A stretch of 47,651 bases of DNA, from positions 1 through 47,651 of the forward strand of contig CBDVCJ010000001.1 of the NCBI GenBank assembly GCA_965372445.1, in the 5' to 3' direction. The notes below the pieces were generated by a model. It was not told where the DNA came from. It did no database searches and worked only from the letters and a program-made list of their open reading frames with translations. The position numbers and the translations under genes were made by a program. Origin of the DNA: an uncultured Thermoplasmata archaeon (GTDB lineage: Archaea > Thermoplasmatota > Penumbrarchaeia > JAEHCK01 > CBDVCJ01). Positions 10,127-47,335 of the stretch are shown in pieces. Positions within the stretch are counted from its first letter, which is position 1. Every line of letters starts with the position of its first letter.

Positions 10127-11099
<973 letters not shown>

Positions 11100-12987: not shown

Positions 12988-13992
12988 GTGTTTGTTCACT
13001 TTGGTCGAGGGGGATTTTGTGTGTATCCAAATTATTATGAACCGAGGACCGTCAAAGGTCTAAAATACATTAATCTTGCCTGGATTTTATATATTGTCGC
13101 TTTGGTAATATTATTGATAATGTTAATTGTGCTGATCCCTGTTCTTATGGAGGCATTTAATGATCCAGATGACTTTGATCCATCAAATTTCGGAATTTTA
13201 TTTGGAATTATAGCTGGTGCTTGTCTTTCTGGACTGTTTTCCCTTATTGTTGTTATACTATTTCTTATCGGAATTATATATATGTTGACAGGCCGCGAGG
13301 AATTTGGACCTCAACATTCAAGCCGTGTAATGTTAGGCTTCATCTTTCTGCTTATCGGTTTCATTATTCCGGTCTTTGGCGGGTTTGGAACGGCATTTAG
13401 TTATAGTGGTTATGGTAGCGCAATATACATAACCTCGGGATTTAGTATCGCGTCCAGCATTTTAATGGCTTTAGGGCTTGTGTTTTTAATTGAAAACCTA
13501 TTAGACGAAAAGTGGAAAAGAATATTATGGACCGGAGGTTTGATCTTTATAATTTTTAGTATAATCGCTGCCGCGATTAATATATGGCTCTTTACAAGCT
13601 TAATCTCTGATATTAGTGACCCAGAGACTTTTTATCTATCTGGTTTTTCGACTTTTACGTTGGTCTCTAGCGGTTTAACGGCAATGAATTTACTACCGAT
13701 CTTTATTTTTCTATTATGCTATCGCCAAGCCGAACAAAGGATCCGCACCGGCGAGCTCAAGGTAGTCCAACCTATGTATCCCCCGCCGCCCCCGCCCTAT
13801 TATTATCCCCCACCGCCGCCCGCCTATTATCCGCCACCTGCTTATGGCTATCCGCCACCTGCTTATGGCTATCCACCGCCAGCAGTCCCACCCAGCGGGC
13901 CTCCGGGCACGCCCCGCAAATGCCCGTCGTGCGAGAAAGAAGCACCACTCGGCATCCCAAGATGCCCGAATTGCGGGTTTTACTTCGGTTAA
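12988..13992 (+). CDS. Polytopic membrane protein with PPxY-rich tail and C-terminal zinc ribbon
   Basis: 334-aa ORF with a GTG start in the track (start uncertain) and multiple TM segments. The tail is PPPPPPYYYPPPPPAYYPPPAYGYPPPAYGYPPP, followed by CPSC-x11-CPNC. Confidence 0.7.
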   Translation: MFVHFGRGGFCVYPNYYEPRTVKGLKYINLAWILYIVALVILLIMLIVLIPVLMEAFNDPDDFDPSNFGILFGIIAGACLSGLFSLIVVILFLIGIIYMLTGREEFGPQHSSRVMLGFIFLLIGFIIPVFGGFGTAFSYSGYGSAIYITSGFSIASSILMALGLVFLIENLLDEKWKRILWTGGLIFIIFSIIAAAINIWLFTSLISDISDPETFYLSGFSTFTLVSSGLTAMNLLPIFIFLLCYRQAEQRIRTGELKVVQPMYPPPPPPYYYPPPPPAYYPPPAYGYPPPAYGYPPPAVPPSGPPGTPRKCPSCEKEAPLGIPRCPNCGFYFG

Positions 13993-14020
13993 TATTGGCA
14001 AAACTATCTGGTGAAAGCTC

Positions 14021-14482
14021 GGTCCTGAGTCCGTAGTCCTGCGTCCGATAAGTTGTGAGTGTTCGTGAGACTGTTTTTATATTGCAAAAGAGCGTAGGAT
14101 TGTTTCAAGAATACCATAATGCGTCGGATATGATGTCTTTTAATAGATGCGTGGGAGCTCCATTTGATTGCTGAGGGCGTTGGATTGCTCAAATAAACAA
14201 TAATCGTGTGAATCAAACGAAAAAACACTCGAACGCATTAAATTAGTCAGTAGGCAATCCAACAAATCAATTAAATGGCATTCAGGTCCCACGCCAATGA
14301 AAATAACTTGACGCTCCTACGCAATTTGGCAAACAGTTAACAATCCAACGCATATAGGTGAAATTTTATCTATCCCACATAATGACAATGTTACCACAAA
14401 CTCACAACTATATGGGCTCCCTGGACTCCCAAGACTCTTTCGCCTATCGCCCTTCGCCTTTCTCGTGGCAAACTCCAATCTT
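14021..14482 (+). repeat. Family-B phased inverted-array element, copy B1
   Basis: The core is bounded by AGTTGTGAGT (14051-14060) and ACTCACAACT (14400-14409). Forward cores start at 14065, 14094, 14123, 14151 and 14179. Reverse cores start at 14229, 14258, 14287, 14315, 14344 and 14373. Outer layers are a GAGTCC-type array (14021-14049 vs 14412-14437), a TTTCGCC array (14437-14465) and GCAAACTCCAATCTT (14468-14482). Confidence 0.9.
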
Positions 14483-14491
14483 GAAAAAAGA

Positions 14492-14953
14492 TCAGATGAT
14501 ATGTCCAACGATATCGGTCTGTTCTCGGTCACAATAAAAACAATTTAATCTGATCGGATCTTTTGAGGTAACAACACATTTACTCCCTATAGGTTCATTC
14601 TTGTTCGAAACGCAGTTCGGGTTCTCGCATTTCACTATACCCTCAATTATAGCCGGGAGCTCTACCTTATGCTTTTTCTCGACATTGAAATTACGGATAA
14701 TATTGAAAGTGGCATTTGGGGCAATTAACGCGATCTTATCAAGTTCATGAGGGTCCAATTCCCGATCCTCGATCTTGACAATATCTTTTTTATCCATTTT
14801 AGCTTTGCCGGAATCGACGTACATTGCCACACTAACGATCGACTCCTGTTTGCCGGTTATCCCAAGTATCTTCAACACTTTCAGTGCCATTCCTTTTTCG
14901 ATATGGTCTATTACGGTACCATTTTTTATGGGTGTAACTTTGAATTCTTTCAT
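14492..14953 (-). CDS. pyrI: Aspartate carbamoyltransferase regulatory subunit
   Basis: 153 aa. N-terminus is KVTPIKNGTVIDHI. The zinc domain is CENPNC...CFYC. Confidence 0.93.
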   Translation of the reverse strand: MKEFKVTPIKNGTVIDHIEKGMALKVLKILGITGKQESIVSVAMYVDSGKAKMDKKDIVKIEDRELDPHELDKIALIAPNATFNIIRNFNVEKKHKVELPAIIEGIVKCENPNCVSNKNEPIGSKCVVTSKDPIRLNCFYCDREQTDIVGHII

Positions 14954-15030
14954 AGTGATCTCACCTCGGTATCCCCACGACCCCGCCCCAAAATAATTAA
15001 TATATAATTTACGACGCGGATATTCTACCC

Positions 15031-15969
15031 TTAAGGAGCTTTACCCAATATTAGCGAAAGTAGCGCCATCCTTACAGGCACACCATTGAACGCCTGTTTG
15101 AAATAAATTGCATGGTCCGTTTTATCGACCTCGTAAGCAATTTCTGTAATTCTAGGTAACGGGTGCATGATCTTCAGATCGTTTTTTGCATTGCTTAATA
15201 ATTCCATATCCACCCGGTACGAGCCCGCAACTTTACGATATTCGGTTTCGTCGGGTATCCGTTCTTTCTGGATACGAGTAACGTAAAGCACATCGGCGTT
15301 CGAGATCACATCGTCGAGCGAGTTGCCCGTCGAAGGTTCAATCCCAAGTTCCTTCAAACCATTAATTATCTCCTGCGGCATCTGCAACAATGGCGGCGCA
15401 ATAAAATGGATGTCAGCGCCAAACAGAGCAAGTGCATGTACCAGCGAATGTACCGTGCGTCCATATTTTAGGTCGCCGACCATCACAATATTCATGTTCT
15501 TGATCTTGCCTTTGGCGGTTTTTATTGTAAATAGGTCCAATAAAGTTTGGGTTGGATGCTGGCCCGCACCGTCACCGCCATTGATCACCGGTTTCGATGA
15601 AAATTCGGTTGCGAGTCGCGCTGCACCTTCTTGTGGATGGCGCAATACTATTGCATCCGCATAGGACTCGGCCATTTTGATAGTATCCGCCAAGGTCTCA
15701 CCTTTCATTACCGATGTGCCCTCTTGACCGAACACCGATATAACCTTACCACCAAGTCTGCACATTGCACTTTCAAAAGATAACCTGGTTCTTGTGCTTG
15801 GTTCAAAAAACATGGTCGTTAAAATCTTACCCGCCAATAAGTTGCTTGTCTTTTCGCCTTTAGCGATGGGTATCATCTTTTTGGCGATATTGATAATATA
15901 ATCGATTTCCTCTTTATTAAAATCCTTAATTGATACAATATCCCTGTTTTTAAAATTGAATTTTTTCAT
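15031..15969 (-). CDS. pyrB: Aspartate carbamoyltransferase catalytic subunit
   Basis: Motifs STRTRLSFE, HPTQ and HPLPR are present. I prefer ATG 15969 (MKKFNFKNRDI...) over the track start 16005, which reaches into the repeat-rich spacer. Confidence 0.93.
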   Translation of the reverse strand: MKKFNFKNRDIVSIKDFNKEEIDYIINIAKKMIPIAKGEKTSNLLAGKILTTMFFEPSTRTRLSFESAMCRLGGKVISVFGQEGTSVMKGETLADTIKMAESYADAIVLRHPQEGAARLATEFSSKPVINGGDGAGQHPTQTLLDLFTIKTAKGKIKNMNIVMVGDLKYGRTVHSLVHALALFGADIHFIAPPLLQMPQEIINGLKELGIEPSTGNSLDDVISNADVLYVTRIQKERIPDETEYRKVAGSYRVDMELLSNAKNDLKIMHPLPRITEIAYEVDKTDHAIYFKQAFNGVPVRMALLSLILGKAP

Positions 15970-16075
15970 CCAATTACCGAGATTTGCTAATAATGCTAAT
16001 CGCATTTAAAATTATCTGTTGGAATGCGGCGAAAGGATTGAGGATGAGATGAAGATTCGAGATTGCCTTTGGAAA

Positions 16076-16120
16076 GACGAAAGGCGAAAGGTAAATACTG
16101 CTTTCGCCTATTGCCTTTTT
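16076..16120. repeat. GGCGAAA/TTTCGCC hairpin (family C) inside a larger nested palindrome (about 16030-16240)
   Basis: GGCGAAAG (16083-16090) pairs with CTTTCGCC (16101-16108). Flanking layers are GATTCGAG vs CTCGAATC, and AAGGATTGAGGATG (about 16033-16046) vs CATCCTCCATCCTT (about 16225-16238). Confidence 0.75.
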
Positions 16121-16287
16121 TTGTGGACTCGAATCGGGAATCTGGAATCCAATAATTTACCCTCACATCACAAATGCCGAAGGGATTTGGGATGTTCATG
16201 CGGAGAACAAAGTTCGACGCATGCATCCTCCATCCTTTAACAATAAATCCCAAACATATATAACTTCAAATCTCAATTTGCATTTCG

Positions 16288-16821
16288 ATGAGCAATCTAA
16301 TTTCCTATAACAATCGCACCCCCAAAGTCGACGAAGGTGCGTATGTGAACCTCCATTCGATAATTATCGGGAGAGTAATAATAGAAAAGAACTGCAGTAT
16401 CTGGCCGGGCTCAATTATTTGTGCTTTTGATCAGGAGATACATTTACAATCAGAAGTATTGATATTAAATAAAGCAGTGATCTTGGCAACCGAGACCCAT
16501 TCCGTTGAGATCGAAGAGGGCACATTAATTTCTCAATTAACTACACTTCAAGGCTGTAGAATTGGTAAGAGCGTATTGATCGGCCGTGGCGCCAAAGTAT
16601 CTGAAGGCGTGACGATTGGTGACGGTACGATTTTGTATCCTAACACGCTGGTTTTACCAGGCGAAGAAATACCTCAGGGCTCGTTAGTGTCCGAAGTACC
16701 GTCGAAAATAATACGTGAAGTGACCGAGCAAGAGACCCAGGCGGTACATGAGCAATATGAAAAGCTTAAGAAAATGGCAGAAGACTTTGGAGGCTATTAT
16801 AATTTGAGCGTGGAAGAATAA
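16288..16821 (+). CDS. Gamma-carbonic-anhydrase-like left-handed beta-helix protein, probably lacking Zn ligands
   Basis: 177 aa with hexapeptide-repeat periodicity, an N-terminus like YrdA/PaaY-type proteins and SIWPG. The positions of the usual His ligands read ATETH / SQ / LQG. Confidence 0.75.
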   Translation: MSNLISYNNRTPKVDEGAYVNLHSIIIGRVIIEKNCSIWPGSIICAFDQEIHLQSEVLILNKAVILATETHSVEIEEGTLISQLTTLQGCRIGKSVLIGRGAKVSEGVTIGDGTILYPNTLVLPGEEIPQGSLVSEVPSKIIREVTEQETQAVHEQYEKLKKMAEDFGGYYNLSVEE

Positions 16822-16826
16822 TTTTT
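16822..16826 (+). terminator. Oligo-T tract after the gamma-CA-like gene
   Basis: TAA (16819-16821) is followed by TTTTT. Inference. Confidence 0.3.
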
Positions 16827-16985
16827 ATAAATGATCTATTGTTAGGGATTATTGAATATATTGTATTACAGACGGCTATCTATGGAATATGGAAATCGGA
16901 TGTCAGAGTGAGCTTCCGACATCTGTCTTCTGACTCCCGTCTTCCTATTTAATAACAATCCCGAAGCTTGGAAATCGAAACAAAA

Positions 16986-17986: not shown

Positions 17987-18046
17987 ACAATTCGTATTGT
18001 GAATAGTTTTATATATTTAAAATATTGCTTACTTGGGTTGGGAATA

Positions 18047-18543
18047 CCAATAGAAAGGCGAGAGACGATTATTTTAGTCATGGAGTCCGATAAGTTGTGA
18101 GTGTTAGTGGGACTGCTATTGTATTGCTAAATAGCGTAGGATTTTTTTAGGCATGCTATTATGCGTGGGATTGCCATTATAACGATAAAGGGCGTGGGAT
18201 TGTCATTATAACTATAAAGGGTGTTGGTTGCTTAATAAACATTAACCGTTGAAATCATACGAAAAAGCGCCTTAACGCATCAATAAAATGGCATTCAGGT
18301 CCCACGCCTAATGGCAATTCAATCCAAATCCTACGCCTTTTAACATGCAGGTAGTAATCCTACGCATTGTAGCGATGGGTATCTATCCTACATAATGATA
18401 AAAATGCCACAAGTACACAACTCACAACTATTAAGACTCGCGACTCACCACTCTTGACTCACGACCAATTAAACCAAACCATTTAACCTCATTTCGCCTA
18501 TCGCCTATCGCCTATTGCCTTTTCAATAGCAAACTCCAATCTT
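18047..18543 (+). repeat. Family-B phased inverted-array element, copy B2
   Basis: The core is bounded by AGTTGTGAGT (18093-18102) and ACTCACAACT (18420-18429). Forward cores start at 18107, 18136, 18165, 18194 and 18223. Reverse cores start at 18271, 18300, 18329, 18358 and 18386. Outer layers are AAAGGCGAGAGACGA (about 18055-18069) vs (TCGCCTA)x3 (18494-18514), then GCAAACTCCAATCTT (18529-18543). Confidence 0.9.
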
Positions 18544-18555
18544 AATAATAGTTAT

Positions 18556-18564
18556 CTTTATATC
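18556..18564 (+). promoter_or_regulatory. TATA-like box upstream of trmY
   Basis: The centre of CTTTATATC is ~30 nt before ATG 18590, which fits a very short or absent leader. Inference. Confidence 0.3.
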
Positions 18565-18589
18565 TCAATTAAGCATTAAAGCGTTTTAT

Positions 18590-19234
18590 ATGCGTAGATT
18601 TATTGTTATTGGCCACCGCGCTAAAACGACCGGGGACTTCACCCTCAACGATCTCTGTGGTTCCGGCGGGCGTATGGATATATTGACTCGATGCGTTAAT
18701 TCCGCATTTTTTTTGTCACACGATCTCAGGCGCAATGTCGAGCTTAATTTGGTGCTTTGCGGCGGTGAGGCGTCGCCGAAAACAATAAGGCTTGTCGGCG
18801 ACGAGCTGCGGTATTTGAACCCCGACGAACGCAGCACAGGTGCATTACTTAGAAATGCGCTAATGAAATTTAACTCCACTGAAGTTGCTTCCCCCAAAAA
18901 AAGCGATCGGACACAATTTAATGAAATTCGGTCCACACCAGGAATTTTTATTTCAGATCGTGGCTTTCAAGAGGTCGTGGGATCATGTGCTGAAGTTTCG
19001 AGAATAATATACCTTTCCGAAGAAGGTCAGGACATTGGTGATTTTGGACTATCTAAGCAGGATCAAGATCTCACTTTTGTTTTAGGTGACGATAAAGGTT
19101 TATCCGAGCAAGAGGAAGAAATATTACAGAAATATAACCCGATATGTGTTAGCCTTAGTCCGCTGATACTACATGCGGACCATTGCATAATTTTAGTGCA
19201 TCGAGAATTAGATGAAGAGTTTTTGTCTAAATAA
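18590..19234 (+). CDS. trmY: tRNA (pseudouridine54-N1)-methyltransferase (SPOUT, DUF358)
   Basis: 214 aa. The N-terminus MRRFIVIGHRAKTTGDFTLNDLCGSGGRMDILTRC matches the TrmY family pattern. Confidence 0.8.
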   Translation: MRRFIVIGHRAKTTGDFTLNDLCGSGGRMDILTRCVNSAFFLSHDLRRNVELNLVLCGGEASPKTIRLVGDELRYLNPDERSTGALLRNALMKFNSTEVASPKKSDRTQFNEIRSTPGIFISDRGFQEVVGSCAEVSRIIYLSEEGQDIGDFGLSKQDQDLTFVLGDDKGLSEQEEEILQKYNPICVSLSPLILHADHCIILVHRELDEEFLSK

Positions 19235-19261
19235 ATAACTTTGGTTCATCTCCCAATTTAA

Positions 19262-19434
19262 GGCAAGATAGTTATTATAGTGGCAAGATGGGGCGGTGGT
19301 CTGTGGAAATACCAAGACAATTGAAGATAGAAGCTAGAAAATGGAAGATAGAGATTAATTGGCTCTAGCTTCCATCTTCTTGCTTCTAATATCTTCCCAC
19401 ATACCACATCCCAAACTTGCCACTAAAAATTGCC
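19262..19434. repeat. Nested palindrome with GAAGATRG core and family-G outer arms
   Basis: The left arm AGTGGCAAGATGGGGCGGTGGTCTGTGG (19279-19306) faces CCCACATACCACATCCCAAACTTGCCACT (about 19396-19424). The inner GAAGATAG/CTAGCTTCC motifs are mirrored around 19355-19362. Confidence 0.8.
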
Positions 19435-19524
19435 ATTAAGACATTCGTAATAAAATTCTATTTCCCCAAAATCGGGAGAAGTACTATAACTTTTAATGGC
19501 AGGGTATCTAAAATAATTTATCGA

Positions 19525-22104
19525 TCAAGGCATGAACTCATAGCCCGAGCTGGTTGATTTTAAGGTGTACAGTAACTGGCCGGTTTCGGCATCTAAGGCT
19601 AACGTATAACCTTGGGTCGGGTTTTGGATATAGAACGCGTACCTCGATCTTTCAAGCACTTGTATCGAGGTTATATCTATTGTTGGGTACGCCACATTGG
19701 CTCTTACACCATATGACACATTACCGAAATCTACCCTCCCCTGGTTATTAAACAAATTTTCATCGATCTCGGTATCCGTCAAATTCACCAGTATTTGCTC
19801 GGAGCTCGCAAAAGTCAATATCGGGTCGAAATCGCGGCTGGAGTTGGGTATGGAATCGATGATGAGCTCTGTACTATCAAACACCCCGTTCTTATCGACC
19901 ATGATATTAAACCCTTCTTTGCTATCTTTCACACCAAATGTCAGATTCCAAAATAGATCCTGGATCTCTCTCTCACCAGTCCCCGCACAATATCCCTTAA
20001 CAACGTAAAGGTTTGGATGGCTATTTTTATAGGCAACAAATCCTGCATCGGTTTCTACATATTGGATCGCTTGCTCGGGGGGATAGGCATTAAAGCTATT
20101 CGGTCCCTGGCCTTGGGACGGCAGATATTTCCAGGCAGAATGATTTTCGTATTCTTTATACAGCACATTCGAATAAAAATGCCCGCCACCAGGTGCAGAT
20201 GCATCGCAAGAGTCGGGTATTACAGTACTCCCAGCGCTATAATCCTTCATCACCGAACTATGGACGATCGTGGTGGTGTTGCCTTCAAGGGTGCTTTCGA
20301 TATAAATATACATCATTACCGGGAACGAAACATCCTCTGCAACCCATACGTTCATGAAAAATTCATCCAGGTTGTTGCGTGCCATTGTCGAGCTATCTAA
20401 GGTCAAATTGACTTTGATCGCCGGACTATTATACACGAAATCGACGCTTTCGGCTTTCCAAATATAGATTATATTGCCGTATTCCACAGCATCAGTATGT
20501 CCGAGCTCGATCGGCTCGTCGGCTAGGTCCTCGATCCTGAACCTTTGGGGCTCCTTGCGCAGGTCGGGATACGAGCGTAATTCGTTATGGGATGTCATTG
20601 GCATATCGATCGCGCCAATGATCGGGATATTGGCAATTGATAATGTTAGATCAATATCATTCACCACATATGTTTTAATGGTGTTCAAGGTTTTATAATC
20701 GGTATAAGCTTCATCCTCCGAGTTCATCGTACCGTCAAGCTCGGCAGTGAACTCATACGGCTCCGGGAAGATCGGATGGGTGGCGGTGCCTTTCACCTCG
20801 CCCGATAGATCCAGGTTCTGTTTTGTCTCTCTTCTATATGTCGAATGCTTTACCCAAAACCCATCCTCAATATTGGGCGCATCTTTTAGCTGTGTGCTCA
20901 TCGGATCGATATCTTGAGTGTTAAAGTTCATATGGATATCTCTGATGACCAATGTGATCTCTTCACCCTCATATACAGTTTTGAAGCTAACGATCCCGTC
21001 AGGGTTGGTCAGGTCGAAGAACCCCTTGACATCGTACTCGCCGTAATCATCCAGATTCTCGGAGGTCAAGGTTATGCTGATGGGTTTAACTGTTATGCCA
21101 ACAGAATCGCTATCTTCATATGAACCCTTTTTAACGGTCAAGGTCACAGTATAATTCTTCTCTATACCTTCACTCGGACTGAAATAGCCCGTTACCTTCC
21201 GGTCGCTCAAAGTGCTGGATTTCAATTTGAAATCGTTATCAATTTCCCATAAGTATTCGTCGATATCGCCTTCCGAGTCAATCGCATCAAATATAATGAT
21301 CTCACCTGCATTATAATCGGTAAATGCTGGCTGGACTGTTATTATCGCATCTAATACAGGTGGCGTCGTCGATCCATTACCATCCTCTCTTGTGCTGTAA
21401 TAATAGTAAGAAACGATAGTTGCCAAAATCACAACTACCGCGATCAATATAGCCTTACCTTTATTTGAGGCCCGTTCACGTTTAATTGGCGCTTTACGGC
21501 GGCGTTTGGGGCGCGGCGCCTCTTCTTCCTCTTCTTCTTCAAGCTCTTCTTCAGCCTCCTCTTCTTCATCATCAGACGCACGCTCGACATCGCCCTCCTT
21601 CAAATCCATGATCTTGAACTTGACCTCTTTGCCCTCCTCGAGGCCTTTAACTTCGATTGGCTCCACAGCAGCCGCTTCCAGCTCGCGGTCGGCAGCGCGC
21701 ATTTGGCGAGTCTTACGGGTCGGCAGTCTTGCAGGTGGTTTACCGACATGTATCACAGCTTCTTCAGCCTTTTTCGGTACTTCTTCGGGCTCTTCAACCT
21801 CCATAGGCTCCCCTAATAGCATCAGCGAATCCTTAGGCGCGGGCTTGGATGGTGGCGGCGGTGCTTCCGGCGGGGGTGCGCTCACTTTGCGCGCCTCTGC
21901 CAAGATCTCGTCTTTGCTACCAATTTGGCTTTTTAGTATTTGCAGACGCCGACGCTTAAACTCATCAAAATCAGAACCCAGTAGCTCTTCCAAGTTTTCA
22001 GTATCGAACCCCAACTCTCGCCACTCTTGAATCTTCCGAAGATACATCTCCCTCTCTTCTACCGAAGGTAAATTTGGGTTTGTCGGGTCCCCTGACATAG
22101 GCAT
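19525..22104 (-). CDS. Type-II (N-in) membrane protein with a large ectodomain
   Basis: The cytoplasmic N-terminal ~260 aa carry a Pro-rich stretch and an EEEEAEEELEEEEEEE block. The TM helix is AILIAVVVILATIVSYYYY. A PKD-like module (YTVTLTVKKG...) and an ~550-aa uncharacterised ectodomain follow. I prefer ATG 22104 or 22098. The track start 22263 runs through the (GGCGAAA)n repeat. Confidence 0.75.
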   Translation of the reverse strand: MPMSGDPTNPNLPSVEEREMYLRKIQEWRELGFDTENLEELLGSDFDEFKRRRLQILKSQIGSKDEILAEARKVSAPPPEAPPPPSKPAPKDSLMLLGEPMEVEEPEEVPKKAEEAVIHVGKPPARLPTRKTRQMRAADRELEAAAVEPIEVKGLEEGKEVKFKIMDLKEGDVERASDDEEEEAEEELEEEEEEEAPRPKRRRKAPIKRERASNKGKAILIAVVVILATIVSYYYYSTREDGNGSTTPPVLDAIITVQPAFTDYNAGEIIIFDAIDSEGDIDEYLWEIDNDFKLKSSTLSDRKVTGYFSPSEGIEKNYTVTLTVKKGSYEDSDSVGITVKPISITLTSENLDDYGEYDVKGFFDLTNPDGIVSFKTVYEGEEITLVIRDIHMNFNTQDIDPMSTQLKDAPNIEDGFWVKHSTYRRETKQNLDLSGEVKGTATHPIFPEPYEFTAELDGTMNSEDEAYTDYKTLNTIKTYVVNDIDLTLSIANIPIIGAIDMPMTSHNELRSYPDLRKEPQRFRIEDLADEPIELGHTDAVEYGNIIYIWKAESVDFVYNSPAIKVNLTLDSSTMARNNLDEFFMNVWVAEDVSFPVMMYIYIESTLEGNTTTIVHSSVMKDYSAGSTVIPDSCDASAPGGGHFYSNVLYKEYENHSAWKYLPSQGQGPNSFNAYPPEQAIQYVETDAGFVAYKNSHPNLYVVKGYCAGTGEREIQDLFWNLTFGVKDSKEGFNIMVDKNGVFDSTELIIDSIPNSSRDFDPILTFASSEQILVNLTDTEIDENLFNNQGRVDFGNVSYGVRANVAYPTIDITSIQVLERSRYAFYIQNPTQGYTLALDAETGQLLYTLKSTSSGYEFMP

Positions 22105-22169
22105 GTAATCGGAATAATAATAACTGTTTGGAGAATATAAAATTTGTGGTTTGTTACCCTTTTTAAAAA

Positions 22170-22231
22170 GGCGACAGGCGAAAGGCGAAAGGCGAAAGGC
22201 GGGGCCGACAAGCTTTCGTCTATCGTCTTTC
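22170..22231. repeat. (GGCGAMA)x4 heptamer array facing CTTTCGTCTATCGTCTTTC (family C)
   Basis: Heptamer units are at 22170, 22177, 22184 and 22191. The complementary arm is 22213-22231. Its two mismatches are G:T on the + strand. Confidence 0.85.
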
Positions 22232-22262
22232 AAATTAAAACAATTTAACCGCAGATGCCTCA

Positions 22263-23315
22263 TTAATCACATAAATTCAACTTCAACTTCGCCGCGACCC
22301 CAACGGCTTTTGTATATTCGGTCAATTTCAACCGCCTATCTATATCGTCGTGGTCGAACGCGTGCCATTCCGGGTGGTACTGGTCCATAACATTCACACG
22401 CACCCTCGAGGTATCTAAATTTGCCGCGAGCCATTTCAGTATCGGTTCAGAACAGCACTCGATATGGTTCGGCAGTACCAAGTGTCTTACGATCATCTCG
22501 GTTTGCGAATTCGCAAGTTTGTGGTTGCGGCTGACGATCCCCCAATAATTTTTAACATTCGATAATCGCTTGCCGCATTTATTGTTGCCGTATTTAAAAT
22601 CCGTTAAATATACGTCGATCACCCCATCGAGCAACTTCATCGCCTCTTGGGTGAGATACATATTGGAATTCCAGACCTGGGCGATGTTCTTGTTAGCGTA
22701 GGTCAGCACCTCGAGTATGAACGCAAGATTGCTCGTAGGGTCGCCACCGACCCAGTTTGCGTTACGCGCACGTGCGCCAATATCCTTCAACATCCTCGCC
22801 ACGATCCGCGGCGCGATCTCGAGGCCGCCGGTCGGGTTCTGGCTGATGTCCCAGTTCTGACAGAATACGCAATCGAACGTACAGCCGGCAAAGAAAAAAG
22901 TATAGGAAGGCACAAGCTCAGATTCCTCGCCATGATGTAAAAACTCGGATGAGATCCGCGAGTTGCCGACCCCGCAATGCCCTAATTGGTCAGGCCGGGC
23001 AGCTTTGCAGCGACGCTCGCAAAATGTGCACTCACGAAAGATACGGTTTGCGAGCTCGAGCTTAAGGTCCAATAACGAAACCTTTGGCGATCCAACCTCT
23101 TGGGGGTCTGTCTTGTTCTTGAGCTTCAGATCTCCCTTGAATCTATTGTAATATGTCGCCAAAGCCCGGTCATGTTCGCTCCACAGCTCATCAATAGCAG
23201 CATTTAAATCCAATTTGACCGGTAACAATTTAGCTAACCTATATCTTGGTAAAGCCTCACCATTAATGATCGCGTAATATCTGGGCAATGCACGTTTGGC
23301 AGCGTTCTCGAACAT
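22263..23315 (-). CDS. Radical SAM enzyme, PflX-like (putative glycyl-radical/activase family)
   Basis: 350 aa with the CxxxCxxC cluster motif CTFDCVFCQN. The layout resembles COG1313-type proteins. Confidence 0.85.
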   Translation of the reverse strand: MFENAAKRALPRYYAIINGEALPRYRLAKLLPVKLDLNAAIDELWSEHDRALATYYNRFKGDLKLKNKTDPQEVGSPKVSLLDLKLELANRIFRECTFCERRCKAARPDQLGHCGVGNSRISSEFLHHGEESELVPSYTFFFAGCTFDCVFCQNWDISQNPTGGLEIAPRIVARMLKDIGARARNANWVGGDPTSNLAFILEVLTYANKNIAQVWNSNMYLTQEAMKLLDGVIDVYLTDFKYGNNKCGKRLSNVKNYWGIVSRNHKLANSQTEMIVRHLVLPNHIECCSEPILKWLAANLDTSRVRVNVMDQYHPEWHAFDHDDIDRRLKLTEYTKAVGVAAKLKLNLCD

Positions 23316-24347: not shown

Positions 24348-24393
24348 TCTGGATTTTTAACCGCTGAATTTTATTGTTATTTTTAATTTTCTC

Positions 24394-24556
24394 GCACCCC
24401 CATATATAAACCGCAGAGTACGCAGAGGACGCTGAATTAAGGTGAGGTCTAGGGACGCTGCCTAGAATTTATTGGGTTATTTTTACTAATAATTCCTACT
24501 TCAATATATATTCAGCGTTCTCAGCGACCTCAGCGGTTTAATAATGGGGGGCGGGG
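24394..24556. repeat. Nested palindrome, family D (CGCWGAG 9-mer arrays) with C5/G6 outer layer
   Basis: AAACCGCAGAGTACGCAGAGGACGCTGAAT (24408-24437) faces ATTCAGCGTTCTCAGCGACCTCAGCGGTTT (24510-24539). The outer layer is GCACCCCCATATAT vs ATAATGGGGGGCGGGG. Confidence 0.85.
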
Positions 24557-24647
24557 ATCAAAACTAAAAACCAAAAACTAATAAACGCAAATCACGAATC
24601 AGGGAAAAAAAATCAACGCACTTTGTCCCCTTAGCGGTAAAAAACCT

Positions 24648-31058: not shown

Positions 31059-31287
31059 TGAAACAACGCTCCTATTATTTTTACACTATTCACTAAAACC
31101 ATTAAATTTTATATATATTAATAATTTGGGGGATTTTATGCATTTTTAATCTTGTTATATATCACTTATTTATGAATAGCCAATTATAAAATGTTCTTTC
31201 GCATAATATCATACTTAAAATCATTATATATTCTTTTCGGAACTTTGTATCTATAATCTTTCAATTGTTGGTATATAAGGTATGGAT

Positions 31288-31779
31288 ATCGGTTGCGGTG
31301 TCGAAGCTCGTATCGTTAGGCGGTTTGGAAGCTCGGCAACAATAGTTTTTAGTTTACAGTCTGGGGTTTGCAGTTTCACTTATTAAAAATAAAAGCCTCA
31401 AGAGGTTGGAAGTTACTATTAGATATTGATATACAGGTTAAAGTTAGGAAGCCGGTATGGAAATTAGGTTATGAAGTTGGTATTGAAGTTTGAAATTTGA
31501 TATTAGGTAGAAGCCCAACTTCTTAACCTCTAGACCACACAGGCTCTTTCAGGTTTCAATGATTTATTTCAGAGCCTTTATGGTTTCGTCCTATCGGACT
31601 TCAACCACCCTGGCCTCATAACCTTAACCCAACATCCAACATCGTAAATAATTCCTATTCAATTAAGGGGGTACTACAAACTAAAAACAACAAACTGCAA
31701 ACTTATAATTATAGTATAAATTTTCGAAACCGCCTTGACCAGCTTCGAGACGCGCATCGAAACCGCAACGGTAACCGAT
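31288..31779. repeat. Largest nested palindrome (~490 bp, at least 3 layers)
   Basis: Layer 1 is 31288-31336 vs 31721-31779 (shared blocks ATCGGTT, GCGGT.TCGA, AGCT, AGGCGGTTT). Layer 2 is AGTTTGY heptamer arrays, 31343-31376 vs 31671-31704. Layer 3 is GGTTA/GAAGTT arrays, about 31404-31500 vs about 31515-31645. Confidence 0.85.
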
Positions 31780-31877
31780 AAAGATAATGATTTTCTTAAA
31801 AAATTGAAATAAAAACTTTAAATTGATATTATTGTATTCAGATGATATTGAGCTTAGATAAACAGGGATAGTTATTC

Positions 31878-32591: not shown

Positions 32592-32603
32592 AAAATGTTT
32601 TTT

Positions 32604-32737
32604 TGATGCACTGTTCATTGGTGGTCTATAGGCTTTTAATTGAATTTTGATAGATCATAAATGCAATATAAAACAGTGCATCTAATAGAAAAAGTTTTGA
32701 CAATGCATCATGAGATTAATTATAAGGCAGTGCATCA
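32604..32737 (+). promoter_or_regulatory. Four copies of CAGTGCATC, three of them phased at 27 bp
   Basis: TGATGCACTG is at 32604-32613 in inverted orientation. CAGTGCATC is at 32674-32682, CAATGCATCA at 32701-32710 and CAGTGCATCA at 32728-32737. Direct-copy starts at 32674, 32701 and 32728 are exactly 27 bp apart. Confidence 0.6.
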
Positions 32738-32741
32738 AAAA

Positions 32742-32903
32742 TTATGGCCTGGCACCTTTTAAGTCCTTTTTGCGCTTGATCGTATCAATGAGTTTCGAAT
32801 AAATAAGGTCAAGAACCTTATCGCTCTCGGCTTTGCGCTGTGCGGCACGCTTTCTGAGCTCTTCTTCATCTACGATCTCGTGGATTTTCAAGCCGATAGT
32901 CAT
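32742..32903 (-). CDS. Candidate 53-aa small ORF (not in track), possibly ribbon-helix-helix-like
   Basis: The sequence is MTIGLKIHEIVDEEELRKRAAQRKAESDKVLDLIYSKLIDTIKRKKDLKGARP*. It is below the track length cut-off and its 3' end abuts the CAGTGCATC repeats. Coding status is unproven. Confidence 0.3.
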   Translation of the reverse strand: MTIGLKIHEIVDEEELRKRAAQRKAESDKVLDLIYSKLIDTIKRKKDLKGARP

Positions 32904-38684: not shown

Positions 38685-38863
38685 CCAAATAAACTAGTTT
38701 TTTTAGCTCCCATGTTTAAAATTAACATTAAGTAAAGGCGATTTTATTAATAATATTTACTATACCACTTTAAAGTTATTGGTAATATATAAAAGTTAGG
38801 GACTTATGTGATGGCATAAACCTGGATTTAATGTACTAATGTCTGTGGTTAGTAAGTCTAAAA

Positions 38864-39183
38864 AGTTGTGAGTGTCCGTGGGATTGCTATTTTTACGCCA
38901 GAGGATGTGGGATTGCTTTAAGGTTGCCATTTGATGTGGGATTACCATTTAATAACCTGATGGTGTAGGATTGCCATTATATTGATAAAAGACATTGGAC
39001 TGTTTAATTAAACAATAACTTCGTGAATCAAACGAAAAACACTCCAACGCATCAACAAAATGGCAATCAGTTCCCACACCCAATGGCTAAACTTGACAAT
39101 CCTACACAATTTAGCAAATAGTTAGCAATCCTACACCAATGGACGAAATTTTAACAATCCCACTTGGAGCTATTATAACAACT
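38864..39183 (+). repeat. Family-B phased inverted-array element, copy B3
   Basis: The left terminus is AGTTGTGAGT (38864-38873). Forward cores start at 38878, 38907, 38936, 38965 and 38994. Reverse cores start at 39043, 39072, 39100, 39129 and 39158. The right terminus is degenerate (AACAACT, 39177-39183) and abuts the arcS stop at 39185. Confidence 0.9.
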
Positions 39184-39184
39184 G

Positions 39185-41053
39185 TCACGTATGGTGTCGG
39201 ACCTTAACCGCCACCCCGCGTTTACTTCTTAATATCTCAGGTGTGCTCATTACCGCTTTGCCCACACCCCGAAGCTCGTCTTTATGTAGTATCACAACCT
39301 CGTCCTCAATTCTGATATCCGGATCAGCATCGGTAATACCCACCGCCATCACGCTGCCTTTTGGCTTGAAATCGTCAATTTCCACCCAAAAAGAATGGCT
39401 GGCCGCCAAAACCTTTGCGCCTTCCAGTGTAAGTGAAATCATACCGCGCTCGGCGATCAGCATCCCCAGCTGTTCTTTGCCGCAAAATATTTTCAGATAA
39501 GGATATTTTCCTTTGATCGTGATCTCACGGTCTTTAAAAAACCTTTCACCTATCTCGCCAAATTGAAACTTCAATATATTCACCATATATTCCTTCAACC
39601 GTTCCTGCTGTGGAATATGCTCATATTGTTGGGCAACTTCAGTTAGGTTTTTTGCCAAATTCATAAGCGCGCTCTGGGACGTTGGGTGTGAACCGTTGCA
39701 AGTTTTTATAATATCAATATCCAGAGTTTGGAATAGCTGCTCCACGATCTCTAATAACTCACCGTTGAGATGCACAATGATATTATCATATCGGTTATTT
39801 TCAATAAACCACTTCAGATCCTGGTCGATCATAGCCTTCTCCGAATGGTCCCAGGCTCCTGAGACCGGGATATCGTATTGTTGGGCCGGATAAAATAATT
39901 CTAACTCACGCGGTACCACCCCCAACGGAGAGGTCAGTATTACCTCATGAACCACACTTGGATTTGCAGAACTTATTAATGCCTGCCTGAACAATTTATG
40001 CGATCTCGAGCTGGAATAGGGTTTACGGGCAGAACAAGGAAGCAACAACAATATCTTTGACGCAGAGGGTTTATTATATCGTGCTTTCAATCGATCTCTA
40101 AACCTTTTCACCTCTGGTCGCCCGATCGCTCCCGACGATACGGCAATGAGTCTCGAACGGCGCATTATAGGCAAATAGAGCTCTTGAAAGTCATAATACT
40201 CCAGATCACCGATCTTCAAAACCGTGGTGAGCCACGGCTCGGATATTGCCCGCTGCTCAACGAGCTCACGCAGCGAGCCGTTGTTAATTGCAGTTCTGAT
40301 AGTCCCTAATTCGGATAAGGCAGAATAATAATTGTGATGAAGTATATGTTCAAACCCGAATTTTTCCGGATCACCGGTTTCCGCAGCGTTACATGCCGGG
40401 CAATAGCAAAATCTTCCACCCTCATAAATAGCATCTTTCGAATATTTACCATTATTATTTAGTAAAACACCATCTCGTGCATTCAAAATTAATCGGGTCG
40501 TATCGATGAGGTCAATTCCACAATAAATTAATAATGCCAATTGGTTTGGCACCCCAATTGCTGGTGCATAAAGTGGTTTGTGATAACCAATGGCCTTTTT
40601 TACCTTGATGACGGCCTCCACAAAACCACGCGGGTTGCGAAGCAATTCGATCGCATTACCCAAAACATATAGTTCCGCATTCGGGTTGATCTGGTCGGCT
40701 AAATCTTCGGTCGAGTAGTTATGGATCATATAAACATCAGTTTCTTCTGAATATTCCTCTTGGTCATCAAACAATTCATTACAGCTTAGGGGATAGCCCA
40801 AATCTGCCGGTATGGTCAATTCCGGGTTGCCGATCGTGTCCTCCTCCAAATCGGTGCTGAACTTACTGCCCGAGTCAATAATGTATGGCTTATTTGTTTG
40901 GAGGCTATGGTCTGCAATAAAAATATCGGCCTCTGAGAATGGCTTGAACCGTTCTGAGGCTATAAAAAATATATTCGGAGTCGTGATCGTTGTATTTCTA
41001 AGGCTCCAATTAGCAACTCTACCAAGCCCGTCACGGTTAGTTATCTCGAACAC
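39185..41053 (-). CDS. arcS: Archaeosine synthase (ArcTGT paralog, TgtA2 type) with C-terminal PUA domain
   Basis: 622 aa. The N-terminus MFEITNRDGLGRV is TGT-like and the Zn motif CYCPAC...H is present. LLPCSARKPYSSSRSH fits the PC-x3-KPY-x2-S-x2-H motif reported for ArcS. The C-terminus is PUA-like. Confidence 0.75.
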   Translation of the reverse strand: MFEITNRDGLGRVANWSLRNTTITTPNIFFIASERFKPFSEADIFIADHSLQTNKPYIIDSGSKFSTDLEEDTIGNPELTIPADLGYPLSCNELFDDQEEYSEETDVYMIHNYSTEDLADQINPNAELYVLGNAIELLRNPRGFVEAVIKVKKAIGYHKPLYAPAIGVPNQLALLIYCGIDLIDTTRLILNARDGVLLNNNGKYSKDAIYEGGRFCYCPACNAAETGDPEKFGFEHILHHNYYSALSELGTIRTAINNGSLRELVEQRAISEPWLTTVLKIGDLEYYDFQELYLPIMRRSRLIAVSSGAIGRPEVKRFRDRLKARYNKPSASKILLLLPCSARKPYSSSRSHKLFRQALISSANPSVVHEVILTSPLGVVPRELELFYPAQQYDIPVSGAWDHSEKAMIDQDLKWFIENNRYDNIIVHLNGELLEIVEQLFQTLDIDIIKTCNGSHPTSQSALMNLAKNLTEVAQQYEHIPQQERLKEYMVNILKFQFGEIGERFFKDREITIKGKYPYLKIFCGKEQLGMLIAERGMISLTLEGAKVLAASHSFWVEIDDFKPKGSVMAVGITDADPDIRIEDEVVILHKDELRGVGKAVMSTPEILRSKRGVAVKVRHHT

Positions 41054-41218
41054 AATGAATCACGAGTGGCAAATGGTAATCATTGTTTTTATAATTTCTT
41101 TTTAAAATCCAATGTCGGGGTGCGAATGGCGAATACTATTGAAGAATATTTCCAATATTCAAATACTACCAATACTACCAATGAAATCCCAATGGCAAAA
41201 TTCCAAGACCCAAGCTTT

Positions 41219-41274
41219 AAAAATCCTGAAAGGATTTTTAATGCGAGGTAACTTGGCGTAGCAAGTTACCGCAG
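41219..41274 (-). repeat. Family-A double-hairpin module, copy A3
   Basis: The + strand reads AAAAATCCT-gaa-AGGATTTTT, then AATGCGAG, then GTAACTT-ggcgtagc-AAGTTAC, then CGCAG. Confidence 0.85.
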
Positions 41275-41278
41275 CCGT

Positions 41279-41334
41279 AAAAAAGCCGAAGGGTTTTTTA
41301 GGGCGAGGCAACTTGACGAAGTAAGTTGCCGCAG
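41279..41334 (-). repeat. Family-A double-hairpin module, copy A4
   Basis: The + strand reads AAAAAAGCC-gaa-GGGTTTTTT, then AGGGCGAG, then GCAACTT-gacgaagt-AAGTTGC, then CGCAG. Its hairpin 1 is identical to that of A5. Confidence 0.85.
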
Positions 41335-41494
41335 ATGCAAGTTCCAAACAAATCCCAAAATTCAAGTACCGAAATTCCAAACGACATTAAAATTTGGATT
41401 TTGGTATTTGGTTCTTGGTACTTGCATAATTTGGTACTATTGGAAATATTAATAAAACAAATAAATCAACGCGTTGCCCCACAAACCGTCACAT

Positions 41495-42920: not shown

Positions 42921-43223
42921 AGTGGAAAGGGTAGGTTTGGGATGTGGCTTATTAAATTCCAAGAACCAAGAGACAAATTCCAAACAAATCCCAAGGTTCA
43001 AATACCAAGTTCCAAAAAAATCCAAATGTGAAGGCCTAAAGATTAATTAATTGGAATTTTGGAATTGGTACTTGCGGCAACTTACTTCGTCAAGTTGCCT
43101 CGCATTGAAAATCCTTTCAGGATTTCCAAAGTTGGAGCTTGTTTGGCTCTTGGAGGTTTGCTTCTTGGAGTTTTGCATTGCCCACATACCTCATACCACA
43201 CACCACCGCCCCATCTTACCACT
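42921..43223. repeat. ~300-bp nested palindrome enclosing module A5
   Basis: The outer arms are AGTGGAAAGGGTAGGTTTGGGATGTGG (42921-42947) vs CCCACATACC...CCACACACCACCGCCCCATCTTACCACT (43181-43223). The last 28 nt match the reverse complement of 19279-19306 at 26/28. Inner CCAAG/TTCCAAA arrays face TTGGA arrays. Confidence 0.8.
43073..43131 (+). repeat. Family-A double-hairpin module, copy A5
   Basis: GGCAACTT-acttcgtc-AAGTTGCC (43076-43099), then TCGC, then GAAAATCCT-ttc-AGGATTTCC (43107-43127), then AAAG. Confidence 0.85.
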
Positions 43224-43264
43224 GAAAATAATTTAACAATAATGGGGCTTTTAATTAATAAAGA

Positions 43265-44812: not shown

Positions 44813-44888
44813 TAATCTCCCCCATATGCAGTTCTAAGGAAATCATAATCAGATATATCTAACTTTTGATTGAATAGTTCTTAAAATA

Positions 44889-45022
44889 GGTTACGAAGTT
44901 CGGTTATGGTTAGGAAGCCGGTTTGGAAGTTAGTGTTAAGGTTAGGATTTGTCCTTATTTGATCCAACTTCATAACCCCAAGACCAAACTCGCCTCCTAA
45001 CCTTAACCAAATGTCCAACTTC
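44889..45022. repeat. 134-bp palindrome (family E: GGTTAGGA/GAAGTT arrays)
   Basis: The left arm is 44889-44947 and the right arm 44963-45022. Shared blocks are GAAGTT, GGTTA, GGTTAGGA, GTTTGG and GTTAGGA. GTTAGGAAGCCGGT is also present at 31443-31456. Confidence 0.85.
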
Positions 45023-45033
45023 TGTTGGAATTC

Positions 45034-46839: not shown

Positions 46840-46907
46840 TCCTCACCAACCATATAATATTGTACATAGTATAAATCAATACTGGTATTTAATTGTTTTT
46901 CTAATTA

Positions 46908-47223
46908 TTCGGGATTCGGGACGCGGGATTCGATAACTTAGAAGTTTGTAGTTTGTGGTTTGTAGTTTGCAGTTTCCCCCCGCCCCCCATTCAACCGCTG
47001 AGTACGCTGAACTCGCTGAAAAACCAATTGTGGGGGTGTAGCGGGTCGGGTGTAGGGTGTATTGAAATGTCCCGACACCCTATACGCTATACCCAACACC
47101 CCCTCAATTTAGCTAATAATTCAGCGTTTTCAGCGTCCTCAGCGGTTAGAACTTTAAAATGAATTAGTTACATGTCCTTTGTGTTAAAAGCCGACTCCCG
47201 AGCCCTGAACACCGATTCCCGAA
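46908..47223. repeat. ~315-bp nested palindrome (families D, AGTTTGY, GGGATTCG)
   Basis: Layer 1 is TTCGGGATTCGGGACGCGGGATTCG (46908-46932) vs CCGACTCCCGAGCCCTGAACACCGATTCCCGAA (47191-47223). (AGTTTGY)x4.7 is at 46943-46975 and CCCCCCGCCCCCC at 46976-46988. The D arms are 46993-47020 vs 47119-47147. The inner GGGGGTGT...ACACCCCC layer is 47030-47105. Confidence 0.85.
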
Positions 47224-47335
47224 GTAATTATAAATTAAAATCCTCGACTTTCTTCAACTGGCTAGAAGTGAATATATGGCCGGAGTGAGACTTATATTAT
47301 TGACTTTATAAATTGTGAAAAGTTTTTTAATCCAT

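Follow-up and report, generated by a model that had tools for sequence, protein, structure and literature searches.

What kind of element is built from two facing arrays of a short motif, each stepping at 29 bp, and how did it come to stand three times among the housekeeping genes of an archaeon? The question is raised by contig CBDVCJ010000001.1, a stretch of 47,651 nt (47.6 kb; hereafter the window) from an uncultured archaeon related to Thermoplasmata, in which positions 18,047 to 18,543 hold one of three copies of a repeat called family B. As a dispersed and lineage-restricted repeat, family B is best filed with the foldback or MITE-like (miniature inverted-repeat transposable element) repeats, none of which has been described in this archaeal lineage. 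The reading put forward here, held tentatively and with somewhat less than even confidence, is that family B is a non-autonomous mobile element of the foldback type, and that its recombinase or transposase binds to the phased sites.

Architecture of family B

Family B consists of three non-coding intergenic copies (B1, B2 and B3) of 324-355 bp, which share one orientation and lie within 25 kb. The original prediction, made from the sequence alone, had placed three homologous elements in the same orientation at 14021-14482, 18047-18543 and 38864-39183, and they are present there. Full-length pairwise identity is 74% for B1-B2, 72% for B1-B3 and 66% for B2-B3, so that the copies are 26-34% diverged. 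They contain no open reading frame (ORF) longer than 39 aa, and none that is conserved.

Each copy has five 29-bp units in the left arm and five inverted units in the right arm, and both arms point inward. When 30 units are set in register, they share an 11-bp core, GYGTNGGATTG, in which position 5 is free and G3, T4, G6, G7 and A8 (GT.GGA) are kept in 144 of 150 cells. A weaker ATTGCYAAA-like motif is found at unit positions 19-27. The core series first described for B2 was recovered, with GT at 18107, 18136, 18165 and 18194 (and at 18223) and TCCNAC at 18300, 18329, 18358 and 18386, and B3 has the equivalent series. The claim of a five-plus-five phasing stands as far as the 29-bp positions are concerned and needs amending in three respects. 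The innermost unit of each arm is degenerate (GTGTTGGTTGC and GCGTTAAGG), 4 of the 24 steps measure 28 bp in the unit register, and the right arm of B1 has six units, the extra one being a clean 29-bp indel.

Between the arms lies a centre of about 40-50 bp, asymmetric and AT-rich, that is present in all three copies. The outer edges carry a terminal inverted repeat, AGTTGTGAGT/ACTCACAACT. B1 and B2 have it in perfect form, and half of it is gone at the right end of B3. This repeat had been taken to bound the element, which is borne out with the correction that it is also the innermost unit of a surrounding 7-nt layer, which reads (NNNGAGT)n to the left and (ACTCNNN)n to the right of the element. 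The ends of the element contain TGTGAG...CTCACA, that is, TG...CA. At the left end a 13-nt motif, AAGTTGTGAGTGT, is the sole stretch identical in B1, B2 and B3, and it has no occurrence beyond the three copies. The 23-nt block AAATGGCATTCAGGTCCCACGCC, a variant of the fourth right-hand unit (R4), is identical in B1 and B2, as had been noted, and differs at two positions in B3. The positions of all parts are collected in Table 1.

Constraint on motif, spacing and arm pairing

The core and its phasing are concentrated in the three copies. With up to one mismatch, 13 occurrences of GYGTRGGATTG were counted in the window, where 2.65 would be expected, and all 13 fall within B1-B3. Same-strand GTNGGA pairs at a distance of 28 or 29 bp number 20, again all in B1-B3; in 200 shuffles of the whole window the mean was 0.155 pairs and the maximum 2. 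Moreover, the core and the sequence next to it have diverged at very different rates. Between orthologous units of different copies, GT.GGA differs in 13 of 150 comparisons (8.7%), as against 233 of 540 (43%) for the 18-nt spacers (Fisher p=4e-17), and the whole 11-nt core shows 25% differences. Pairwise identity descends from the left end (100%) through R4 (83-97%), the centre (74-83%) and the cores (73-84%) to the spacers (54-67%). Length changes inside the arms are limited to one whole 29-bp unit and single-base steps. GT.GGA is kept while the spacers drift, and outside the cores the likeness of the arms does not exceed chance, which argues for selection on motifs and spacing and not on a hairpin. 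By this substitution pattern, selection keeps the oriented motif, the spacing, the ends and the centre, and not a helix. Such conservation is the signature of sequence-specific protein recognition, from which we infer protein binding. The oriented protein-recognition sites of the original prediction are thereby favoured as far as the contrast of core and spacer goes; its analogies with origins, centromeres and iterons are taken up below.

The same figures bear on the view that family B arose neutrally and is functionless: slippage would have enlarged a tandem array, and the palindrome building general in this lineage would then have duplicated it in inverse orientation. Nested inverted 7-nt or 9-nt arrays do make up most long intergenic regions, both here and in relatives, B1 differs by exactly one unit, and GGATTG/CAATCC heptamer arrays are found elsewhere in the window, for example at 135-168. 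Neutral decay, however, cannot yield so large a difference between cores and adjacent spacers across all 30 units, cannot hold the 29-bp step through such divergence and cannot keep the 13-nt end identical in three copies. A neutral origin is therefore regarded as very unlikely.

Since the cores are inverted between the arms, the element could also be a structural hairpin, either similar to a repetitive extragenic palindromic (REP) sequence or bacterial interspersed mosaic element (BIME), or a long structured RNA. It would form five 9-11-bp helices and act as a terminator, mRNA stabiliser or processing site. Both strands fold better than shuffles (z -3.0 to -7.8), 76% of the core cells pair in register, and in units 2-4 of B3 core position 2 has changed from C-G to U-A on both arms. 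The location of B1 between convergent genes and of B3 directly after a stop codon would suit such a role. Nonetheless, good RNA or DNA folding scores follow automatically from the inverted cores, and the spacers are not complementary. Within a copy, spacer identity is 0.36 for cognate L_i/R_i units and 0.33 for non-cognate ones, compared with 0.55 for orthologous units of different copies, and the short helices would be split by 18 x 18-nt internal loops. The near-invariant GT.GGA sequence is not needed for pairing alone, and position 5, in the middle of the helix, is free and often mismatched. The change at position 2 is the only double-sided one, and it fits a core subfamily (GTGT vs GCGT) as well as it fits pairing; covariation was not above the control, the observed values being reached by 53-54 of 500 shuffles. 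Rfam 15 gave no match, either for the whole window at gathering thresholds or for 17990-18590 at E up to 1. One long hairpin, already set aside in the original prediction, is ruled out by spacers that are not complementary between the arms. A structured RNA or REP-like hairpin was rejected for lack of compensatory arm complementarity and of an Rfam match, and hairpin function in general is judged to be distinctly unlikely.

Other classes of repeat were likewise discarded. A coding repeat is at odds with a period of 29, which is not a multiple of 3, and with the lack of an ORF. An array of clustered regularly interspaced short palindromic repeats (CRISPR) does not fit a whole period of 29 bp with an 11-nt core and opposite unit orientation in the two arms; the 'spacers' of one copy are homologous to those of the others, and there are no cas genes.

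Table 1. Positions in the window of the family B copies, their parts and the layers around them
Feature	Position	Strand	Remarks
B1 left outer layer	14021..14049	+	degenerate GAGTCCN-like heptamers GGTCCTGAGTCCGTAGTCCTGCGTCCGATA; read directly
B1 element	14048..14402	+	nhmmer E=1.8e-96
B1 left end	14050-14062	+	
B1 left units, starts	14063, 14092, 14121, 14149, 14177	+	
B1 centre	~14188-14227	+	
B1 right units (six), ends	14236, 14265, 14294, 14322, 14351, 14380	+	
B1 right end ACTCACAACT	14393-14402	+	
B1 right outer layers	14403..14482	+	(GGACTCN)n, (TCGCCNN)n 14437-14462, then GCAAACTCCAATCTT
B2 left outer layers	18040..18089	+	(AGGCGAN)n remnant GAAAGGCGAGAGACGAT, then GGAGTCCGATA
B2 element	18090..18432	+	nhmmer E=1.5e-99
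B2 left end	18092-18104	+	
B2 left units, starts	18105, 18134, 18163, 18192, 18221	+	
B2 centre	~18232-18268	+	
B2 right units (five), ends	18278, 18307, 18336, 18365, 18393	+	
B2 right end	18423-18432	+	
Variant R4 unit AAATGGCATTCAGGTCCCACGCC	18288..18310; also 14275-14297; 39060-39082 with 2 changes	+	83-97% pairwise
B2 right outer layers	18433..18545	+	(ACTCNCN)n to ~18468, (TCGCCTA)n 18490-18525, then GCAAACTCCAATCTT
B3 element	38862..39185	+	nhmmer E=9.5e-98; no heptamer outer layers
B3 left end	38863-38875	+	
B3 left units, starts	38876, 38905, 38934, 38963, 38992	+	
B3 centre	~39003-39040	+	
B3 right units (five), ends	39050, 39079, 39107, 39136, 39165	+	
B3 right end	at 39185		degenerate; abuts stop codon of archaeosine synthase gene

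Chromosomal setting, heptamer palindromes and relatives

Pfam scans of 30 window ORFs identified CysRS, phosphoenolpyruvate synthase, FtsZ, riboflavin enzymes, PyrB/PyrI, TrmY, endonuclease V, a C25 peptidase and archaeosine synthase. The window is chromosomal and holds housekeeping genes only, with pyrBI, trmY, the archaeosine synthase gene, ftsZ and riboflavin genes among the neighbours of the elements. The closest named relatives of its TrmY come from Thermoplasmata and Methanomassiliicoccales metagenome-assembled genomes (MAGs), at 53-57% identity. No orc1/cdc6, par, rep, cas or transposase gene was found among the ORFs scanned, and no tRNA gene was found in the window. Cumulative GC skew falls steadily across the window and is monotonic through B1-B3, with no turning point. 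The gene contexts of the three copies differ, being convergent, divergent and tandem; family B is therefore not tied to its neighbours.

This setting removes the analogies with origin recognition boxes (ORBs), centromeres and iterons that the original prediction had drawn. As a replication origin, or a derivative of one, family B would present opposed ORB-like Orc1/Cdc6 sites round an AT-rich unwinding region. The sole origin feature found is the convergence of oriented, non-palindromic sites on the AT-rich centre; a 29-bp step would also be compatible with the size of an Orc1 footprint. Set against this are the lack of orc1/cdc6 in the window, the presence of three copies in 25 kb, a cumulative GC skew without an extremum at any copy, the absence of the element from the same sites in relatives (see below), and a core that appears to lack TCCA..GGAAA, which we take to be the signature of ORB and mini-ORB sites. 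An origin is extremely improbable. Plasmid iterons and a partition centromere were rejected as well, given the housekeeping neighbours, the lack of rep and par genes and a BLASTN comparison with plasmid and phage collections that returned no match.

Family B is embedded in a wider landscape of repeats. In most long intergenic regions of the window, degenerate repeats of 7 nt (sometimes 9 nt) form nested inverted arrays, namely in 1-194, 1635-1855, 16006-16287, 19235-19524, 24348-24647, 31059-31877, 41054-41460, 42995-43264, 44813-45033 and 46840-47250. Beyond the window, such arrays were found in L018 (960-1260), L020 (9500-9960) and L003 (2200-2520); L018, a contig of 2.8 kb that probably belongs to the same MAG or to a sister of it, contains nested heptamer arrays and no family B. 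Examples in the window include (GAAGATA)n at 19313-19345 against 19366-19398, (AGGCGAN)n at 16068-16091 against 16100-16120, and three nested layers within 31270-31790. The arms of these 'onion' arrays match at the conserved heptamer positions and not at the degenerate ones. Apparently, the nested heptamer-palindrome system around family B has not been described before.

B1 and B2 sit at the apex of nested inverted heptamer arrays, and B3 is without such layers. B2 is enclosed by two of them, (AGGCGAN)n/(NTCGCCT)n and (GAGTCNN)n/(ACTCNCN)n. B1 is enclosed by the (GAGTCNN)n/(ACTCNCN)n layer and has the AGGCGAN/TCGCCT layer on its right side only. The right outer stretch of B1 (14403..14482) is homologous to the right flank of B2. 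B1-type outer heptamers also flank B2 and, in relative L001, the core of another repeat (family A), and the outer layers common to B1 and B2 occur at other loci too.

In a separate observation, five tandem AAAGGCG heptamers were found at 22162-22201, in the N-terminal end of the mechanically called ORF 19525-22263. The orthologue in relative L002 is shorter (866 aa) and has a spacer of about 500 bp upstream. The true start of the ORF probably lies downstream, and the heptamer stretch is probably intergenic.

Comparison with relatives revealed that the sites of family B are occupied differently elsewhere. In L002 (GCA_030672045.1; TrmY 77% amino-acid identity) the B2 site is without the element; the same promoter blocks and AGGCGAN/TCGCCT layers are present, with 18 bp between the layers. 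The AGGCGAN layer at B2 is orthologous to L002 2858-2890, and the TCGCCT layer is orthologous to L002 as well. At the same site L001 (84% TrmY) carries a family A double-hairpin core, and L003 and L020 (67%) carry other inserts within (GGGGTCA)n layers. At the B3 site, L015 (77%) has a family A core and L019 (60%) a short spacer of unrelated sequence. Searched with an nhmmer profile of family B, the window gave its three copies only, and about 50 kb of relatives' sequence gave none. Flanking promoters are conserved with the relatives, and the family B copies leave them untouched. The original prediction had named absence from syntenic positions in close relatives as evidence that would count against it, and the B2 and B3 sites of relatives do hold either nothing or a different insert.

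In some relatives, family A takes the sites that hold B2 or B3 in the window. A copy of this family is a pair of small neighbouring hairpins, GGTAATTT..AAATTACC and TTGAAAAT..ATTTTCAA, with CTCGC between them. Window copies lie at 1-56, 1672-1727, 41215-41335 (minus strand, two in tandem) and 43077-43132, and copies in relatives at L001 2500-2590 and L015 6700-6760. Compensatory changes are found between copies (GGTAATT/AATTACC vs GGCAACTT/AAGTTGCC). Family A stands at the apex of heptamer palindromes and is common to the relatives with 77-84% protein identity. Two close relatives were compared with each other, L003 (2160-2545) and L020 (9474-10000), where trmY is 92.7% identical at the nucleotide level and the promoter and the (GGGGTCA)n/(TGACCCC)n layers are shared. 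Their palindrome interiors of 300-400 bp are unrelated despite closely aligning outer layers. Because the outer parts align while the interiors differ wholly, palindrome interiors in this lineage appear to be exchanged very fast, in cassette fashion.

The site of B1 was affected by a rearrangement. The pyrI-pyrB-hexapeptide transferase segment spans 13993-16985 in the window, 5198-9056 in L020 and 342-4269 in L021. Its orientation is the same in the window and L002 and is inverted in the 67% relatives; at the B1 site of L020 and L021 the junctions are short. One inversion breakpoint coincides with B1 and the other with a repeat-bearing spacer at 16822-16985.

The window has further repeats. 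An AT-rich spacer between 32591 and 33196 contains, at 32600-32745, three copies of CAGTGCATC, one complement GATGCACTG and a weaker variant CAATGCATC, a group that could be a regulator-binding cluster. Tandem repeats inside ORFs at 13771-13874 and 45048-45236, made of 21- and 27-nt CCNCC-rich units and of 36-, 39- and 75-nt GGTTGCTGTGGC-type units, probably encode low-complexity proline- or glutamine-rich segments.

Proposed mobility and exchange, and likeness to known systems

In the proposed foldback element, a sequence-specific protein would read the conserved cores in duplex DNA and load head-to-tail along each arm. With a step of 29 bp, or about 2.76 helical turns, the array would spiral round the DNA instead of lining one face. 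The arrays of the two arms would then pair and so draw the conserved ends together. The cores would serve as its subterminal sites: the protein, acting in trans as a transposase or recombinase, would copy or move the element, by analogy with the ends of Tn7 and Mu and with eukaryotic foldback and En/Spm elements. The apexes of heptamer palindromes would be favoured for insertion or for replacement by recombination; this would explain why B1 and B2 have flanks in common and why no target-site duplication is present.

A number of observations weigh against such mobility. No target-site duplication is found at the ends of B1-B3, where direct repeats amount only to chance AT or ATA; the flanks read CGATA (left) and ATATG (right) for B1, CGATA and ATTAA for B2, and AAAAA on the left of B3, those of B1 and B2 being homologous. 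An autonomous partner or transposase gene is absent from the window. Only three copies are known, all within the window, and no two of them are near-identical; hence there is no sign of recent activity, and all three are old. The 'empty' sites of relatives are not precise junctions, as their interiors differ by more than the element. The flanking layers of B1 and B2 are common beyond the ends of the element, so that spread by recombination between heptamer arrays, without a dedicated enzyme, is possible. Moreover, adjacent sites face different sides of the helix at a 29-bp step, an uncommon arrangement in cooperative arrays. The original prediction had also named the ends of a known MITE or insertion sequence, with target-site duplications, as evidence against it; no such duplication is present. 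Compared with the usual features of a MITE, family B has terminal inverted repeats and is small, non-coding, multi-copy and intergenic, and it lacks the target-site duplication.

Alternatively, family B may be a cis-acting platform of the host, with sites for a nucleoid-associated protein or regulator that serve as a chromatin boundary, insulator, loading or partition site. Its copies would be kept by host selection and would have spread by ectopic recombination between heptamer arrays, not by transposition. The cores, spacing, centre and R4 are conserved at 26-34% divergence, which fits purifying selection in place, and the copies fill intergenic space and spare the promoters beside them. The copies share a single orientation in a window of uniform GC skew, and the outer layers of B1 and B2 are both shared and present at other loci. 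However, a function tied to those genes should be syntenic, and the same sites are empty of family B in all relatives examined, including the one with 84% TrmY identity. The differing gene contexts do not favour it either, and three copies would share an orientation by chance with a probability of 0.25. On balance, a host platform is thought to be unlikely.

A broader proposal, possible though rather doubtful, is that family B is one cargo of an archaeal intergenic repeat system. The 'onion' apexes would be landing pads for interchangeable cores, and family B a platform with a 29-bp step whose dedicated reader protein drives exchange or organises local chromatin. Unrelated cores (family A, family B and others) may be inserted or swapped at such sites, even between strains that are about 93% identical.

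Searches of databases and literature returned no relative of family B. A 20-mer common to B1-B3 (AAATGGCAWTCAGKTCCCAC) had one chance match (Arthrobacter) in genome contigs, two unrelated matches in metagenome contigs and none in viral contigs. The phased two-core pattern had four matches in viral contigs, none of them family B, and the pattern of left end plus first unit had no match in viral contigs. A perfect 3 x 29-bp tandem repeat with CAATCCCACGTGATTG was observed at 10440-10530 of a high-GC viral contig (L011; IMGVR_UViG_3300031578_000542). It was rejected as a relative, since only core and period coincide and it is otherwise dissimilar. Literature searches on archaeal heptamer palindromes and on prokaryotic foldback MITEs, which were not exhaustive, found nothing matching, in agreement with the earlier statement that no archaeal repeat class with this layout has been described. 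The archaeal cases in a review of prokaryotic MITEs (PMC10969869) come from Sulfolobus, Halobacterium, Haloquadratum, Desulfurococcus and a few others, and none is listed from Thermoplasmatota.

If the foldback reading is true, family B would give archaea their first described mobile repeat of foldback style with several phased sites in each arm. The motif GYGTNGGATTG, repeated at a step of 29 bp, is predicted to be a precise recognition site and could be used as bait for its protein. The nested heptamer palindromes with their fast-changing interiors suggest an unrecognised building and remodelling of archaeal intergenic DNA. They bear on the assembly of uncultured groups, because repeats break contigs, as well as on promoter and terminator annotation and on the targeting of palindromes by mobile DNA.

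Foldback transposons such as Drosophila FB and Galileo have long inverted arms made of tandem short units, which in FB are 10, 20 and 31 bp long. Family B resembles them in its inverted arms of tandem units, its non-repeated centre and its conserved ends, and most of their copies are likewise non-coding. FB and Galileo belong to eukaryotes; they generate target-site duplications, and the two arms of each element are highly complementary. In contrast, the arms of family B are alike only in the 11-bp core of each 29-bp unit, and neither a duplication nor a coding partner is known. Several transposase sites, inverted between the two ends, are found in the TnsB sites of Tn7, in L1-3/R1-3 of Mu, in Tn402/Tn5053 and in the subterminal repeats of En/Spm. 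These ends share with family B oriented, non-palindromic repeated sites and conserved terminal nucleotides. Family B departs from the Tn7 and Mu type in that five or six regular 29-bp sites per arm fill the element, and it has no cargo, no 5-bp duplication and no nearby transposase gene.

With MITEs such as Correia, Chunjie and those of Sulfolobus, Halobacterium and Haloquadratum (PMC10969869), family B has in common that it is small, non-coding, intergenic, multi-copy and AT-rich, with terminal inverted repeats and size variants. It differs from them in having an internal phased array and no direct-repeat duplication.

Inverted arrays of ORB and mini-ORB sites around an unwinding element also make up archaeal oriC. 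The likeness lies in opposed arrays of polar sites that converge on an AT-rich centre; unlike oriC, family B has no evident ORB-like sequence, no orc1/cdc6 neighbour, no skew inflection and no synteny, and stands in three copies per 25 kb. The parC site of plasmid R1 has two sets of five 11-bp iterons round a core promoter, direct, contiguous and in helical phase, beside parMR. Family B is similar to it in having 5 + 5 short sites of constrained spacing round a distinct core, and dissimilar in that its sites are 29 bp apart, inverted between the arms, chromosomal and dispersed.

Among bacterial repeats, pneumococcal BOX elements are modular and have a variable number of internal tandem units. 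In Nostoc, Elhai and colleagues reportedly described in 2008 tandem arrays of heptamer short tandemly repeated repetitive (STRR) sequences, together with small dispersed repeats and nested insertions into other repeats. REP, BIME and REPIN (REP doublet forming hairpin) elements are intergenic palindromic repeats, REPs being true hairpins of 20-40 bp that are tied to RAYT transposases (PMC3116915). Family B is set apart from REP/BIME/REPIN, BOX and cyanobacterial STRR, all of them bacterial, by its 29-bp phased cores in arms that lack complementarity. By function its closest counterparts are multi-site transposon ends and eukaryotic foldback elements; in genomic behaviour it resembles the MITEs of prokaryotes as well as BOX, REP/BIME and other modular intergenic repeats.

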